A stretch of DNA of 64,000 bases from Candidatus Brocadiia bacterium (GTDB lineage Bacteria; Planctomycetota; Brocadiia; CAIUPP01): assembly GCA_050015075.1 (NCBI GenBank), contig JBEKCB010000020.1, positions 1 through 64,000 of the forward strand, given 5' to 3'. Both the position numbers and the translations under genes were made by a program. How positions within the stretch are numbered: position 1 is the stretch's first letter; every line of letters begins with the position of its first letter. The notes beneath the pieces are model-generated. The model had not been told where the DNA came from, ran no database searches, and was given only the letters and a program-made list of their open reading frames with translations. Shown here piece by piece: positions 11,362-21,937 of the stretch.

Positions 11362-12339
11362 ATGCGGCACCTGATCACCGGCGGCGCGGGATTCATCGGC
11401 TCGCATCTTTGCGAGCAGCTCATTGCAGCGGGCGACGACGTGCTCGTGCTCGACGACCTGAGCACCGGGCGCTATGAGAACGTCGCCGCGCTCGAGGGCG
11501 GCGGACGCTTCCGCTTCATCCTCGGCAGCGTCAACAACGCCGACCTGGTGACCGAATGCGCGCGCCAGTGCGACGCGGTCATGCACCTGGCCTCCGCCGT
11601 CGGCGTGCGGCTGATCATTGACCAGCCGGTCCGCACGATCGAGACGATCGTCTCCGGCACGGACACGGTCCTGCGCGTCTGCGCGCGGTACCGCAAGCCC
11701 GTGCTCATCACCTCGACCTCCGAGGTCTACGGCAAGAGCGAGAAACTGCCGTTCCGCGAGGAGGACGACCGCGTCATGGGGCCGACGACGCAGCGGCGCT
11801 GGAGCTACGCGTGCGCGAAGGCGCTCGACGAGTTCCTGGCGCTGGCGCACTGGTACGAGTACCGGCTGCCGGTGGTGATCGCGCGCCTGTTCAACACCGT
11901 GGGGCCGCGGCAGACCGGGCAATACGGCATGGTCGTCCCGCGGTTCGTGCGGCAGGGGCTGAGCGGCGAGCCGATCACCGTGTACGGCGACGGGAAGCAG
12001 ACGCGCTGCTTCGCGCACGTCCTCGACGTGGTCGAGGCGCTGCCGAAGCTCGTGCAGCTTACGGAGGCGCGCGGGCAGATCTACAACATCGGCAGCACCG
12101 AGGAAGTCACCATGCTCGAACTGGCGCAGCGCGTGAAAGCCGCCACCGGCGGGCGCTCGGAGATCAAGCTGATCCCGTACGAGGAAGCGTACGTCGAGGG
12201 GTTCGAGGACATGCGTCGCCGAGTGCCGGACCTGGGGAAAATCCACAAAGCCATCGGCTATCGCCCGAAACGCGGCTTGGATCAGATCCTGAAAGACGTC
12301 ATCGCCGAGCTGCAACTCAAGCAGATGGCCACGGATTAA
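11362..12339 (+). CDS. NAD-dependent nucleotide-sugar epimerase/dehydratase (extended SDR)
   Basis: Contains TGGAGFIG, STSEVYG, YACAK (YxxxK), RLFNTVGPRQ and GDGKQTR. Confidence 0.92.
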   Translation: MRHLITGGAGFIGSHLCEQLIAAGDDVLVLDDLSTGRYENVAALEGGGRFRFILGSVNNADLVTECARQCDAVMHLASAVGVRLIIDQPVRTIETIVSGTDTVLRVCARYRKPVLITSTSEVYGKSEKLPFREEDDRVMGPTTQRRWSYACAKALDEFLALAHWYEYRLPVVIARLFNTVGPRQTGQYGMVVPRFVRQGLSGEPITVYGDGKQTRCFAHVLDVVEALPKLVQLTEARGQIYNIGSTEEVTMLELAQRVKAATGGRSEIKLIPYEEAYVEGFEDMRRRVPDLGKIHKAIGYRPKRGLDQILKDVIAELQLKQMATD

Positions 12340-12545
12340 TAAAAGAAACGACGGCAACAACGACATCTTTGCCACGGATTACACGGATTACCGGCAGACG
12401 GCGGACAAGACAAGAAAGTAGTACGGTGGCAACGACATCTTCGCCACGGATTTCACGGATGGCCACGGATTAGCGAAAGAAACGACGGCAACAACGACAT
12501 CTTTGCCACGGATTTCACGGATTGCACGGATTACCGGCGGACAAG
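12324..12545 (+). repeat. Left CACGGAT repeat array flanking the GxxExxY gene
   Basis: Multiple (C)CACGGAT(T) units inside a tandemly duplicated block (12324-12395 and 12458-12538). Confidence 0.85.
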
Positions 12546-12585
12546 AGACAACGGAATTAAGATGTAGGCGCAACTGTACAGGCGG

Positions 12586-12951
12586 TCATCGATCGAGGAT
12601 TTTGCGCTTGTGCTCAACGGAGTGACCGAAGTTGAGCAAGAGGCCGACTTCCACGCGCGTGGCCCGCAAGTAACAAACAATCTGCGCGTGGTGAGCTTCT
12701 GCCAGACGTGAAACCGATTTCACCTCTACCAGCACCTTGTCTTCGACAAGCAGGTCGCAGACGTACTCGCCGACTACCGCATCGTGATACCTTACGGTCA
12801 AGGGCTTCTGCTGCTCAACTTTCAGACCGATTTTTCGCAATTCGATGGCCAGGGCGTTCTCGTAAACCTTTTCCGTAAACCCGAAGCCGAAATAAGCGTG
12901 AACCTTGAATGCCGCGCCAATGATCTGGCTGGTGATCTCCCCGTGCTTCAT
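12586..12951 (-). CDS. GxxExxY protein (PD-(D/E)XK-fold, PDDEXK_3-like)
   Basis: IIGAAFKVH..FGFGFTEKVYENAL (GxxExxY), followed by DLLVEDKVLVEVK, QIVCYL and GLLLNFG. Start placed at MKHGEIT. Confidence 0.92.
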   Translation of the reverse strand: MKHGEITSQIIGAAFKVHAYFGFGFTEKVYENALAIELRKIGLKVEQQKPLTVRYHDAVVGEYVCDLLVEDKVLVEVKSVSRLAEAHHAQIVCYLRATRVEVGLLLNFGHSVEHKRKILDR

Positions 12952-12967
12952 CGCCACCTGATCATCT

Positions 12968-13148
12968 CTTTCGTTAATCCGGCCATTCGTGAAATCCGTG
13001 GCAAGAATTTCGTTGCCGCCGTACAACTTACTTGCCTTGTCCGCGGTTGCCGGTAATCCGTGTAATCCGTGAAATCCGTGGCAAAATCGTTTCTTCTGTT
13101 AGCCCGTGGCCACCCGTGAAATCCGTGGCAAAGCTGTCGTCGTTGTCG
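12968..13148 (-). repeat. Right ATCCGTG repeat array (inverse of the left array)
   Basis: Contains TAATCCGTGTAATCCGTGAAATCCGTGGC and similar units. Its reverse complement aligns by eye with 12371-12480. Confidence 0.85.
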
Positions 13149-13847
13149 TCAATCGAAGAACCGGAACCTGAAGATGTGCCATAGCGCGCTGAAGCCGTCG
13201 CGCCAGGTGATTTTTTTGCCCTGGGCGTAGTCGCGGCCGCTGTAGGAAATCGGGGTTTCGTAAATCCGCACCTTCATCCGCGCCAGCTTCGCGGTCATCT
13301 CCGGTTCCACGGAGAAGCGGTTGCTCTTGATCTGCAGGCTCCGCGCCAAGTCGCCGCGGAACACCTTGTAGCCGGTCTCCATGTCGGAGAGGTCCAAGTT
13401 CGTCATCATGTTGCTCAGCGTCGTCAGCATCGCGTTCCCCACGCGATGCCAGAAGAACATCACGCGGTGCGGCCCGCCGAGGAAGCGCGAACCGAACACC
13501 GCGTCGGCGCGCCCATCCAGGATCGGCTGCAGGAGCGTCGGGTAATCCGCCGGGCTGTACTCCAGGTCGGCATCCTGGATGAGGACGATATCGCCCTTCG
13601 TCTGGGCGAAGCCGGTCCGCAGCGCCGCGCCTTTGCCCTGGTTGCGCTCGTGGTGGAAAACGCGCACCTCGTCGCTCCGGAGCTGGTCCACCACCTCGCG
13701 CGTCCCGTCGGTCGAGGCGTCGTCCACGATGACGATTTCCTTGCGGTACGGCGTGGCCTGGACCAGCCGGACGACCTGGGCGAGGAAGTCCTTCTCGTTG
13801 TAGACGGGAATGACGACCGAGAGTAACGGCTCGGGATTTTTTGTCAT
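13149..13847 (-). CDS. GT2 glycosyltransferase (polyprenol-phosphate glycosyltransferase / DPM1-like)
   Basis: Contains [33 protein letters not shown] and DMETGYK. Confidence 0.9.
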
Positions 13848-13911
13848 GCGGATCTCCGATAACTCTTCAGCGAAGCCGATTGCAGAAGCTCGAAGGCAGG
13901 TGTTCTTTCGT

Positions 13912-14163
13912 TCATTTTGCCGCTTCACTAGGTGAATTGCGCTGGTTCTGCTTTGATTCGAGAGTATTCAGGCGCCTGCTCATGGTCACTAAGAGAGCCG
14001 CGCAAATAGTGCCCATACTTCCCGTCATACAGTAAAGGACCGGCAACATGCCCCTTCCAGGAGCCTCGTGTGTGATAATAACGCCTAACGCCGCACCAAC
14101 GCCGAGAATGACCATGCCGAATGACATGACGTACAGACTCAATACTAAAGGATTACGTTTCAT
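13912..14163 (-). CDS. Small two-TM hypothetical membrane protein
   Basis: Two hydrophobic stretches in a lower-GC patch; start uncertain. Confidence 0.5.
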
Positions 14164-21373: not shown

Positions 21374-21391
21374 GATTAACGACCAGTTTTT

Positions 21392-21509
21392 GCCACGGAT
21401 GGCACGGATTACACGGATTTCCACGGATTAACGGAAAACGGAGATAAGGGCCGTTTCAATCATAGAAGCTGTTCGTCGGTAATCCGTGGGAATCCGTGAA
21501 ATCCGTGGC
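21392..21509. repeat. Gene-less CACGGAT/ATCCGTG inverted array pair
   Basis: GCCACGGATGGCACGGATTACACGGATTTCCACGGATT ... AATCCGTGGGAATCCGTGAAATCCGTGGC; same unit as the arrays around the GxxExxY gene. Confidence 0.85.
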
Positions 21510-21511
21510 GA

Positions 21512-21937
21512 CTATGTCTTTGTTTTCTTCAGCTCGTCGCTGATCTTTTTGCGCCAGGCTTCCTGCTCGCCCGGCGCATACTGGCCGGGGCTCCAGTGGA
21601 ACGAGTAGCCGTCGCCGTTATGCCGCGGGATGATGTGGATGTGGACGTGGGAGACCGTCTGCCCGGAGCAGCGGCCGTTGGTCTGGAAGATGTTGAAGCC
21701 GTCGGCGCGCGCGGCGGCGACGGCGGCGCGGGCCAGGCGGGGCAGCGCCGCGGCGAGGTCGGCCGCCGCCTCGTCCGGCAGGTCCGTCAGGCGCTCGTAG
21801 TGCTTCTTCGGGATGAGCAGCACGTGTCCGGGCTGCACCGGGTTGAGGTCCATGAAGGCGAGCTTGGCCGCGTCTTCATAGACCTTCGCCGACGGGATTT
21901 CCCCCGCAACGATCTTACAGAAGATGCAGTCGGCCAT
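21512..21937 (-). CDS. HIT family nucleotide hydrolase
   Basis: Contains CIFCKIVAGEIP, GHVLLIPKKH and HVHIHIIPR. Confidence 0.93.
   Translation of the reverse strand: MADCIFCKIVAGEIPSAKVYEDAAKLAFMDLNPVQPGHVLLIPKKHYERLTDLPDEAAADLAAALPRLARAAVAAARADGFNIFQTNGRCSGQTVSHVHIHIIPRHNGDGYSFHWSPGQYAPGEQEAWRKKISDELKKTKT

Follow-up and report, generated by a model that had tools for sequence, protein, structure and literature searches.

In REPIN/RAYT systems, doublets of REP sequences that form hairpins are accompanied by a REP-associated tyrosine transposase (RAYT), as set out in the original report and in a review (Bertels & Rainey 2011, PMC3116915; 2011 review, PMC3337134). The REP unit itself is described as a short palindrome that ends in a conserved tag, either GTAG or CGTC (PMC3733652). 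Another arrangement comes from Coxiella, where an intervening sequence (IVS) in the 23S rRNA carries an S23p (PF05635) ORF (PMC4990558). Proteins of the GxxExxY (PDDEXK_3) family are listed as having an unknown function in a table of PMC3424549. Below we compare these systems with a locus in which a GxxExxY gene is enclosed by inverted arrays of a 7-nt core, CACGGAT.

The window in which this locus resides is the whole 64-kb stretch of DNA that was analysed (positions 1 to 64,000 of contig JBEKCB010000020.1), and derives from the genome of a Candidatus Brocadiia bacterium, hereafter the source genome. Two host genes frame the locus, one coding for an NAD-dependent sugar epimerase/dehydratase of the SDR type (11362-12339, + strand; PF01370, E = 9e-52; PF16363, E = 1e-54) and the other for a family-2 glycosyltransferase (GT2; 13149-13928, - strand; PF00535, E = 1.6e-37). 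The entire spacer between them is occupied by an 827-bp block (12324-13150). An ORF at 12586-13026 on the - strand has an internal ATG at 12951 that yields a 121-aa protein, and the corresponding gene (12586-12951) is located downstream of and in the same orientation as the GT2 gene.

The 121-aa protein matches TIGR04256 (GxxExxY; E = 8.4e-41, 139 bits, cut-off 35) and PF13366 (PDDEXK_3; E = 9.3e-41, 139.3 bits, cut-off 22), the latter being its sole profile match in a Pfam-type search; no transposase family matched the ORF in the profile search. Its GxxExxY motif reads G24-F-T-E27-K-V-Y30, and the putative catalytic residues are D66, E76 and K78, followed by Q90-x-x-x-Y94. Among 70 sequences, E27, D66 and K78 are invariant, and G24, Y30 and E76 are at least 90% conserved. 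A sequence search of the PDB gave no match at E <= 1. The predicted structure (pLDDT 95.6) has fold matches to Cas4 SSO0001, lambda/LHK exonuclease, Hjc and the nuclease domain of BpuSI, the best of which are moderate (Foldseek E = 6e-4, VIA Z = 8.8). On the basis of this model, the protein is predicted to adopt a restriction-endonuclease-like alpha/beta fold and to be a putative PD-(D/E)XK nuclease. Like Cas4, RecB-type enzymes, lambda exonuclease and Hjc (PDB 4ic1, 3syy, 6m9k and 2wiw), it has the core fold and an acidic/lysine motif followed by a QxxxY helix, but it differs from them in being a minimal core without an Fe-S module or extra domains.

The block consists of three tandem CACGGAT arm modules to the left of the gene and three inverted modules to its right. 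CACGGAT occurs 21 times in the window, compared with 9.4 +/- 3.1 expected (0 of 100 shuffles reach 21), and the copies are confined to three places: a + strand group of nine (12330-12531), a - strand group of five (12994-13127) and a further group of seven at 21394-21507. The cores recur with a period of 9-10 nt, and the arms follow the scheme TTTGC + (CACGGAT + 2-3 nt) x 2-3 + TACCGGC. Left arm module 1 (12324-12396) has cores starting at 12330, 12373 and 12382; module 2 (12438-12475) has cores at 12445, 12454 and 12464; and module 3 (12500-12538), with cores at 12507, 12516 and 12525, is shaped like the left arm of the gene-less hairpins described below. On the - strand, right arm module 1 (12972-13006) is degenerate and retains a single exact core (12994-13000), module 2 (13048-13086) has cores at 13056, 13065 and 13074, and module 3 (13100-13150) is again degenerate, with a core at 13121-13127 and, further out, a segment of inverted repeat extending as far as the stop codon of GT2.

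There are 17 inverted pairs around the gene, including 12398-12464/12981-13047 (67 nt, 85%), 12373-12396/13048-13071 (24 nt, 100%) and 12502-12538/13049-13085 (37 nt, 97%). The first of these takes in the left linker (12397-12437, + strand) and the right linker (13007-13047, - strand), which are complementary to each other, and the matched arms are therefore approximately 90-110 nt long. The left arm also carries an internal duplication with an offset of 134 nt (12324-12389 versus 12458-12523, 94%). Moreover, the first CACGGAT (12330-12336) is located within the 3' end of the epimerase gene, whose product ends in ...QMATD* at 12339, such that left arm module 1 supplies its last four codons and stop. 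The sister species lacks this module, and its epimerase is four residues shorter at the C-terminus. An initial annotation, made from the letters of the window, had already proposed the GxxExxY gene between the epimerase and GT2 genes, the opposed arrays on its two sides, a long imperfect inverted repeat that includes the linkers, the 134-bp duplication and the contribution of the first repeat unit to the end of the epimerase, and all of these features are borne out by the profile matches, ORF calls and alignments given above.

The third cluster of cores in the window belongs to a hairpin without a gene (21387-21512), which has four cores, a loop of approximately 53 nt and three inverted cores, and which is predicted to fold as DNA at -37.3 kcal/mol (z -7.3). 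The source genome has 16 complete and approximately six partial gene-less CACGGAT hairpins, which are dispersed and have their own loop consensus, unlike the inner flanks of the cassette. A purine-rich arm upstream of the gene was considered as a strand signal and rejected. Given that a hairpin of the form R-loop-Y reads alike on both strands, an upstream purine arm shows no more than that the majority of cassettes have the R...Y form.

A pattern of doubled CACGGAT cores occurs 87 times in the source genome and 117 times in the sister species, as opposed to 0-2 times in 31 of 39 other relatives, and a reversed control pattern is almost never found. Ten genomes have at least five such doublets, and six of these have a CACGGAT-armed gene among the genes retrieved; among those same genes, none was found for the other four (G018, G031, G019 and G002). 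Hairpins of other families are likewise numerous. The source genome has at least 113 periodic hairpin loci versus five GxxExxY genes, and none of its three largest strictly periodic families (25, 21 and 21 loci) is accompanied by a GxxExxY gene there. Several families that seem to be orphaned in the source genome (CACAGAT, CACAACG, CGCGAAAG and CGCAAAG) have a cognate GxxExxY gene in relatives. CACAGAT doublets number 67 in the source genome, where the cognate gene was not found and the orthologous site is empty, versus 46 in the gene-bearing sister species (G001), and CACRACG doublets number 38 versus 28. Thus, these two families are equally abundant without their cognate gene.

The initial annotation had predicted that inverted arrays would be enriched beside GxxExxY genes and that the repeats would covary with protein phylogeny, and both predictions hold. 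All five GxxExxY genes of the source genome are bracketed by inverted short-unit arrays, with flank inverted-repeat scores of 20, 41, 30, 37 and 18; a score of at least 18 is rare among control ORFs of the same genome, at 3 of 681 random ORFs and 3 of 616 small ones. The five paralogues are 37-49% identical to one another and each has its own, different repeat unit (CGCAGAG for the one at C22:14826-15203), and the sister species has six such genes. Among homologues from many phyla, which were gathered with the single window protein as query and are therefore biased towards its clade, 54 of 77 loci score at least 14, versus 3 of 231 mismatched-flank controls, and the remaining 23 have no clear bracket. 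The corresponding values for relatives are 45 of 78 loci (33 without a clear bracket) and 5 of 234 controls. This packaging of a gene with its repeat, alongside many hairpin copies that lack the gene, is met again in phyla of both bacteria and archaea, and both in the source genome and in relatives there is one gene per arm family per genome. Genes for PF05635 four-helix-bundle proteins in relatives have the same array brackets at 22 of 26 loci, versus 2 of 104 controls. These proteins are not nucleases, and therefore the architecture does not need a nuclease. Further genes of the source genome also lie between periodic arms (ParA-like, GT1, methyltransferase and others); from their translations, these were judged to be host genes located between two separate hairpins, and were set aside.

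These characteristics resemble those of REPIN/RAYT systems in several respects: each repeat family has a single enzyme gene, on either side of which its repeats stand inverted to each other; a genome can hold several families, each with its own gene (here five genes and five units); and gene-less hairpins are dispersed in extragenic space. However, the enzyme in those systems is an HUH Y1 (IS200-like) transposase rather than a putative PD-(D/E)XK nuclease, and the repeat is a single 20-40-nt palindrome with a GTAG/CGTC tag rather than phased arrays of a 7-nt core. No such end tag is present in the CACGGAT arms. In addition, the gene described here lies inside the hairpin. The arrays are not explained by any Y1/RAYT gene: the only two Y1_Tnp matches in the source genome (C26 and C44) both have unrelated inverted repeats, and the sister species has no Y1_Tnp match, yet carries 117 arrays.

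The core sequence tracks protein clade and not host. When 58 loci are labelled by the end of the core (33 ...GAT, 20 ...GAG and 5 ...GAA), the label changes four times on the protein tree, whereas shuffled labels change 21 times on average and never fewer than 15 times (0 of 500 reach four). Host phyla are mixed within each core class, and the paralogues of the source genome fall in protein clades that match their own arms. Within a protein clade the 7-nt cores stay conserved even though the proteins share only approximately 45-60% identity. The cores are also constrained, in that 76 of 77 core positions are identical between the source genome and the sister species, versus 239 of 285 non-core intergenic positions and 105 of 122 third codon positions of the GxxExxY gene.

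Movement of these elements, as proposed in the initial annotation, would sit poorly with stable synteny, and on this point the outcome is divided. The sister species has the epimerase-GT2 cassette itself at the corresponding position, which speaks against movement, whereas paralogous cassettes are present or absent at orthologous sites. An empty epimerase-GT2 site, for which the initial annotation suggested looking in relatives, was not found because gene order downstream of the epimerase differs in G002-G004 and in more distant relatives. Metagenome contigs from four runs likewise revealed no empty allele, and the pieces that cover the cassette are identical to the window. Putative joints of approximately 500-590 nt in these data were rejected as empty alleles, since their sides are only 20-41 letters long and their loop sequences are different, and we read them as gene-less hairpins from elsewhere.

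Each of the seven gene-less CACGGAT hairpins tested has a counterpart at the same site in the sister species, from which it differs in module number alone. Thus, no recent movement of these hairpins is seen, and array length changes by the gain or loss of modules. A CACAGAT cassette of 558 nt in the sister species corresponds to 44 nt in the source genome, and given that the cassette is at the same site in the outgroup G002, it was lost from the source genome. Conversely, a 492-nt cassette of the source genome (C49) is absent from the sister species, where 7 nt separate the aligned flanks by blastn (approximately 33 nt differ by eye); outgroups G002 and G003, in which the flanks are rearranged, are uninformative for the polarity of this difference. 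At two further orthologous sites, all that the source genome retains is a gene-less hairpin or the remnant of an arm. One orthologous site has a hairpin alone in the source genome versus arm-arm-gene-arm-loop-arm in the sister species, and one intergenic site is occupied by different elements in the two species. The C3 cassette of the source genome is arranged as arm, gene and complete hairpin, and only its left flank is syntenic in the sister species. No target-site duplication or defined cut site is evident at the hairpin ends or at the filled and empty junctions inspected; classical IS and MITE elements have terminal inverted repeats with a target-site duplication, and a transposase in the autonomous copy.

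Gene and arms are best described as being inherited as one unit, and cassettes appear and disappear whole. Cores that follow the tree would also be expected if gene and arms were simply passed on together. The GxxExxY gene is under purifying selection, with a dN/dS of 0.11 relative to the sister species, and this, together with long-term vertical inheritance, is a further likeness to REPIN/RAYT systems. Domesticated RAYTs are reportedly treated in one paper.

Several other explanations for the block need to be considered. It might act at the level of RNA in the manner of the 23S rRNA IVS, with the arms pairing in a GT2 read-through transcript and the stem being trimmed by a double-strand RNase, much as RNase III excises the IVS from its transcript; such trimming would shield the messages of the host genes and would free the small ORF or regulate it, and the function of the protein would be unrelated to the arms. 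The layout matches, in that the source on the IVS (PMC4990558) describes a small ORF within inverted repeats that are able to form a long stem, and a selfish insertion that is acquired horizontally and then retained vertically. The bracketed PF05635 genes of relatives belong to the same family as the IVS ORF, the gene-less hairpin at 21387-21512 folds strongly, and the GxxExxY gene follows the GT2 gene in the same orientation, with no sigma-70-like promoter (the scan covered sigma-70-type sites) or intrinsic terminator consensus in 12250-13250. Rfam has no family that matches 12200-13300. However, the IVS resides in an rRNA helix and its ORF codes for a four-helix bundle, whereas the block lies between protein-coding genes and combines a nuclease-fold ORF with phased-repeat arms. 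Pairing alone would conserve complementarity, yet the cores are conserved in sequence, both between the two species and within protein clades of modest identity. Furthermore, the spacers between cores are often unpaired, being consistently ttc in the left arm versus ggc in the right, and a plain stem leaves the phased repeats unexplained. We consider an RNA-level cassette fairly unlikely. Somewhat less probable in our judgement is that the hairpins came first and spread by other means, with the GxxExxY gene a selfish passenger, such as a homing-type nuclease, that entered hairpins and was later lost. The excess of hairpin loci over genes, the two families that are abundant without a gene, the lone hairpin at a site that holds a cassette in the sister species, the composition of the C3 cassette and the exchange of elements at one intergenic site would all fit such a history. 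A spreading homing element would not be expected to leave one gene per arm family per genome, though, and the single site with an outgroup shows loss rather than insertion. The tracking of protein clade by the cores across phyla also indicates that free movement of the gene from one hairpin family to another does not occur.

It is improbable, in our view, that the arrays are operator-like iterons for self-regulation or titration, with the protein employed elsewhere (for example, in defence or addiction) and the hairpins being decayed cassettes. A phasing of 9-10 nt does set the cores on one face of the helix, the arrays are directly upstream of the start codon in this cassette and in the paralogous ones, and at two sites no more than a hairpin or the remnant of an arm is left of a cassette. 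The loop consensus of the gene-less hairpins nevertheless points to copying of hairpins, and not to approximately 16 independent gene losses. Finally, a common intergenic repeat could happen to flank an unrelated small gene, since the source genome is dense in hairpins and a few large host genes do lie between two hairpins of one family. The bracketing of 5 of 5 genes in the source genome and of most homologous loci across phyla, set against the few controls that score as high, makes such a coincidence scarcely credible, as does the arrangement in the window, where every core of the left flank is forward and every core of the right flank inverted.

With these alternatives in mind, we consider that the block is a gene-bearing member of a hairpin-array family, comprising a repeat and its cognate protein in a REPIN/RAYT-like relationship, and we assign this interpretation, including a role for the protein in binding, cutting and spreading the repeats, a probability of about one half. 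Most likely, the protein would read the phased cores of its own arms and those of the gene-less hairpins. It might then nick or cut at the cores, either in duplex DNA or in an extruded or single-stranded hairpin, and this cutting could promote the copying, recombination or maintenance of hairpin elements. Such a system would work much like REPIN/RAYT, in that a single-copy enzyme gene with its own flanking repeats is joined by hairpin copies that are not autonomous; the enzyme, however, has an unrelated fold, and the arms are phased arrays of two to three cores each. Somewhat more tentatively, and with the odds leaning against it, we propose that GxxExxY proteins as a family, and PF05635 proteins in parallel, may be sequence-specific readers of phased arrays. 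They would then constitute a second, HUH-independent class of replicator built from a repeat plus a protein, present in bacteria and archaea, whose core co-diversifies with protein clade.

Full-text literature searches, the scope of which excluded most subscription journals, returned no published description of a GxxExxY gene paired with a repeat, and the pairing is apparently new to print. A large protein family found across phyla is now tied to a candidate DNA partner in the form of clade-specific heptamer arrays, and the defined repeat core makes the function of the family directly testable by binding and cleavage assays on a set oligonucleotide. If the link is functional, GxxExxY proteins would be a second kind of enzyme with which the REPIN/RAYT way of life is achieved. 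There would then be a connection to the intervening sequences of rRNA that bear an ORF and have long lacked an explanation, and the hundreds of intergenic hairpins found per genome in little-studied phyla would be accounted for. Should the broader replicator class also prove real, the GAT, GAG and GAA classes and their finer subtypes would amount to a natural and readable code for protein-DNA recognition, and the class would explain much of the burden of intergenic hairpins carried by Planctomycetota, Verrucomicrobiota, Acidobacteriota, Chloroflexota, Bacteroidota and other phyla. For the organism itself, the hairpins reshape the ends of genes, as with the last four codons of the epimerase, and their expansion and contraction set sister species apart.

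The draft genome whose contig C20 supplied the window (4.64 Mb, G+C 64.7%) has its closest public relative, by GxxExxY gene, in a MAG labelled Candidatus Brocadiia (Planctomycetota), and peat metagenome runs contain DNA near-identical to the window. The 121-aa GxxExxY ORF (12586-12951, minus strand; PF13366 E-value 9e-41; TIGR04256 139 bits, cut-off 35) is located downstream of and in the same orientation as a GT2 glycosyltransferase gene (13149-13928, minus strand), and its left neighbour codes for an SDR sugar epimerase/dehydratase (11362-12339, plus strand). Outside the ORF, the epimerase-GT2 spacer is repeat: nine forward copies of the core CACGGAT lie on the left and five inverted copies on the right, and the whole window holds 21 where 9.4 +/- 3.1 are expected. 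Within an arm module, which reads TTTGC-(core + 2-3 nt) x 2-3-TACCGGC, the cores recur every 9-10 nt; three such modules stand in tandem on each side of the gene, with linkers that are complementary between left and right. Re-examination of the sequence bore out the initial annotation in its coordinates, in its 134-nt duplication and in its first core overlapping the final codons of the epimerase gene.

All five GxxExxY genes of this genome lie between inverted short-unit arrays whose units all differ (CACGGAT, CGCAGAG, GCCGATGAAC/GCAGATGAAC, CGCCAAGA and CACGGAA), and their proteins show 37-49% identity to that of the window. One paralogue, at a contig end (L028, C41:198-551), has a frame open upstream and no ATG, GTG or TTG before its first helix, and may either start from a different codon or be in decay. 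The five genes have inverted-repeat scores, which measure the flank-to-flank match, of 18-41; a score of 18 is reached by three of 681 random and three of 616 small ORFs. Of all 3323 ORFs in the crude set, 30 score at least 14, and most of these are large host genes with a hairpin on either side or are IS-like. The strongest non-periodic flanking inverted repeat in the genome-wide scan (score 51) surrounds a 1062-aa ORF at C4:160477-163843.

With the window protein as query, 80 loci were drawn across phyla from a species-level genome collection, and among the 77 with usable flanks 54 score at least 14 and 33 at least 18, versus three and two of 231 mismatched-flank controls. GxxExxY genes are present in 31 of 41 related genomes; flanks of 80 such genes were fetched, and of the 78 usable, 45 and 29 reach these scores, versus five and none of 234 controls. 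The bracket is thereby found at approximately 60-70% of GxxExxY loci, the remainder having none at the score threshold used.

Core sequence also follows protein lineage. When each locus on a tree of 78 proteins was labelled by the base that ends the shared core theme C[AG]CN[AG]A-N, 58 received a label (33 T, 20 G and 5 A) and 20 could not be labelled; the label changes four times, versus 21 times on average and never fewer than 15 after shuffling (0 of 500 reach four). Host phyla are mixed inside each core class (T and G loci number 5 and 2 in Acidobacteriota; T, A and G loci number 3, 2 and 5 in Chloroflexota), and this genome has two loci in each of the T and G classes. Smaller subclades have more specific core variants, for example CACAGAT, CGCCGAT and ACACGGAT, and protein identity correlates with flank similarity (rho 0.32; Mantel 0/300). 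Clade-tracking alone is no proof of recognition, because gene and arms travel together. The core nevertheless persists between proteins so far diverged that neutral DNA would have been randomised. Between this genome and its sister species, 76 of 77 core positions are identical, versus 239 of 285 in non-core spacer and 105 of 122 third codon positions, a comparison in which the aligner can be anchored by repeats; this conservation agrees with the clade-tracking. Purifying selection acts on the gene itself (dN 0.026, dS 0.236, ratio 0.11).

Gene-less CACGGAT hairpins (16 complete and about six partial, roughly 100-130 nt) are dispersed in the genome, each with three cores before a loop of about 50 nt and three inverted ones after it. 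One is in the window at 21394-21507 (fold -37.3 kcal/mol, z -7.3), where the flanking genes, judged by visible stop and start codons, are apparently both on the minus strand; the syntenic contig of the sister species has CACGGAT hairpin matches some 8.5 kb from the cassette, which suggests conservation of this hairpin. A strict scan for periodic arms yielded 113 hairpin loci in 20 clusters by unit, and since it failed to pick up the CACGGAT family the real total is higher. Three large families are without a GxxExxY gene in this genome, namely GAGGACGAGGACGA (25 loci, pyrimidine arm first), GACGATAGAC (21 loci) and GGGAGATTGG (21 loci), with examples at C1:136302, C11:5912 and C13:12080; C1:52166 and C11:2913; and C1:210021 and C13:9836. 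Palindromes of GTCATTCCCGCGAAGGCGGGAATCCA type are also dispersed as inverted doublets with no phased units (C1:154010, C1:185358, C11:28117, C12:14346, C6:61689 and C6:133045).

The sister species (91-94% DNA identity) carries the CACGGAT cassette at the orthologous position. The two proteins are 95% identical; in the sister species the outermost left module of the window, some 100 nt, is missing and the right side has an additional 25-nt piece. Flank mapping of seven gene-less CACGGAT hairpins placed every one at an identical site in the two genomes, and no new insertion of the family was seen. Orthologous lengths are unequal (for example 254/408, 184/334 and 380/171 nt), and therefore the arrays breathe via module gain and loss. 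The hairpin at C5:174534-174913, whose right arm has expanded to 19 inverted cores, arranged as tandem modules each about 49 nt long, is 195 nt longer than at its orthologous site in the sister species.

The two species do not have the same set of cassettes. The sister species has six, of which those with CACGGAT and CGCAGAG are clearly common to both. Its CACAGAT cassette (558 nt) is matched here by 44 unrelated nt and in a further relative, G003, by 66 nt; G002, of another genus, has the cassette at that site, so it is old and was lost from this genome. Where the sister species has its CACAACG cassette, only a gene-less hairpin of that family is present here; where it has its CACCAAG cassette, gene included, the left arm is kept here with a nested GGGAGATT-family hairpin (C15:81429-81548); and where it has its ACAGGAT cassette, this genome has a hairpin of a different family. 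Conversely, a 492-nt cassette on C49 is absent from the sister species, where the flanks aligned by blastn are 7 nt apart; inspection by eye puts the differing stretch at about 33 nt, which resemble outer arm ends. A TCGTAATCG-family hairpin and the small palindrome next to it, together about 165 nt (L131:11561-11715 on C10 of the sister species), are replaced here by 7-8 nt (C5:~108096), with no target duplication evident.

Hairpin numbers can be set beside gene presence. CACAGAT doublets number 67 in this genome, where no cognate CACAGAT-armed gene was found, 46 in the sister species, 21 in G002 and two in G003; for CACRACG the doublet counts are 38 here and 28 in the sister species, which has the cognate gene. 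Among fetched genes, a CACGGAT-armed one occurs in six of ten genomes with at least five CACGGAT doublets and not in the other four, and such arms flank none of 31 genes from eight zero-array genomes. PF05635 four-helix-bundle genes have the same bracket at 22 of 26 loci in relatives, versus 2 of 104 controls. Positional stability, doublet counts and these PF05635 brackets speak against active spreading by the GxxExxY gene.

The predicted structure (pLDDT 95.6, from a 70-sequence alignment) is a minimal restriction-endonuclease-like core. No solved structure was found by sequence match; the nearest by fold are Cas4 SSO0001, the LHK and lambda exonucleases, Hjc and the BpuSI nuclease domain, along with several uncharacterised REase-like proteins (best scores, Foldseek E 6e-4 and VIA Z 8.3-8.8). 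Residues E27, D66 and K78 are invariant in the alignment, and conservation reaches 90% or more at E76, Q90 and Y94. Given this fold and these residues, nuclease activity is plausible.

We give about even odds (approximately 0.5) to a model resembling REPIN/RAYT systems, in which doublet hairpins are paired with a cognate Y1 transposase. Most economically, the GxxExxY protein would read the phased cores, and this might lead to cutting, copying, maintenance or regulation. As other candidate mobilisers, this genome has two Y1_Tnp (IS200/RAYT-like) genes, at C26:67017-67346 (plus strand) and C44:10217-10519 (minus strand); the inverted repeats flanking them are unrelated, for example of GTATTCCCGGGACATAATAC type, and the sister species yielded no Y1_Tnp match. 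An RNA-level role akin to that of 23S rRNA intervening sequences is unlikely. The units that bracket PF05635 genes (23S rRNA IVS protein) differ from GxxExxY arm units and include GACGATGGAC, the unit of a family that is 'orphan' here. In this genome, PF05635 genes at C1:168128-168427 and C13:29599-29814 (both minus strand) lie between inverted CGAATGGCGAATGCCGATTGCCGA and GTGGACTTT arrays, respectively, and GACGATGGAC arrays bracket L298 of the sister species.

That the gene is a passenger dwelling in a hairpin loop is a picture that gene-less hairpins would suit and core clade-tracking would suit poorly, and we hold it to be rather doubtful. Operator-like arrays seem improbable. Chance association is contradicted by the control counts, and we give it almost no credence.

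No description of the pairing of GxxExxY genes with arrays was found in the portions of the literature searched. What the evidence supports best is a structural and evolutionary statement: the block is a hairpin-array cassette, with cores that are under constraint and linked to the descent of the protein encoded inside it.
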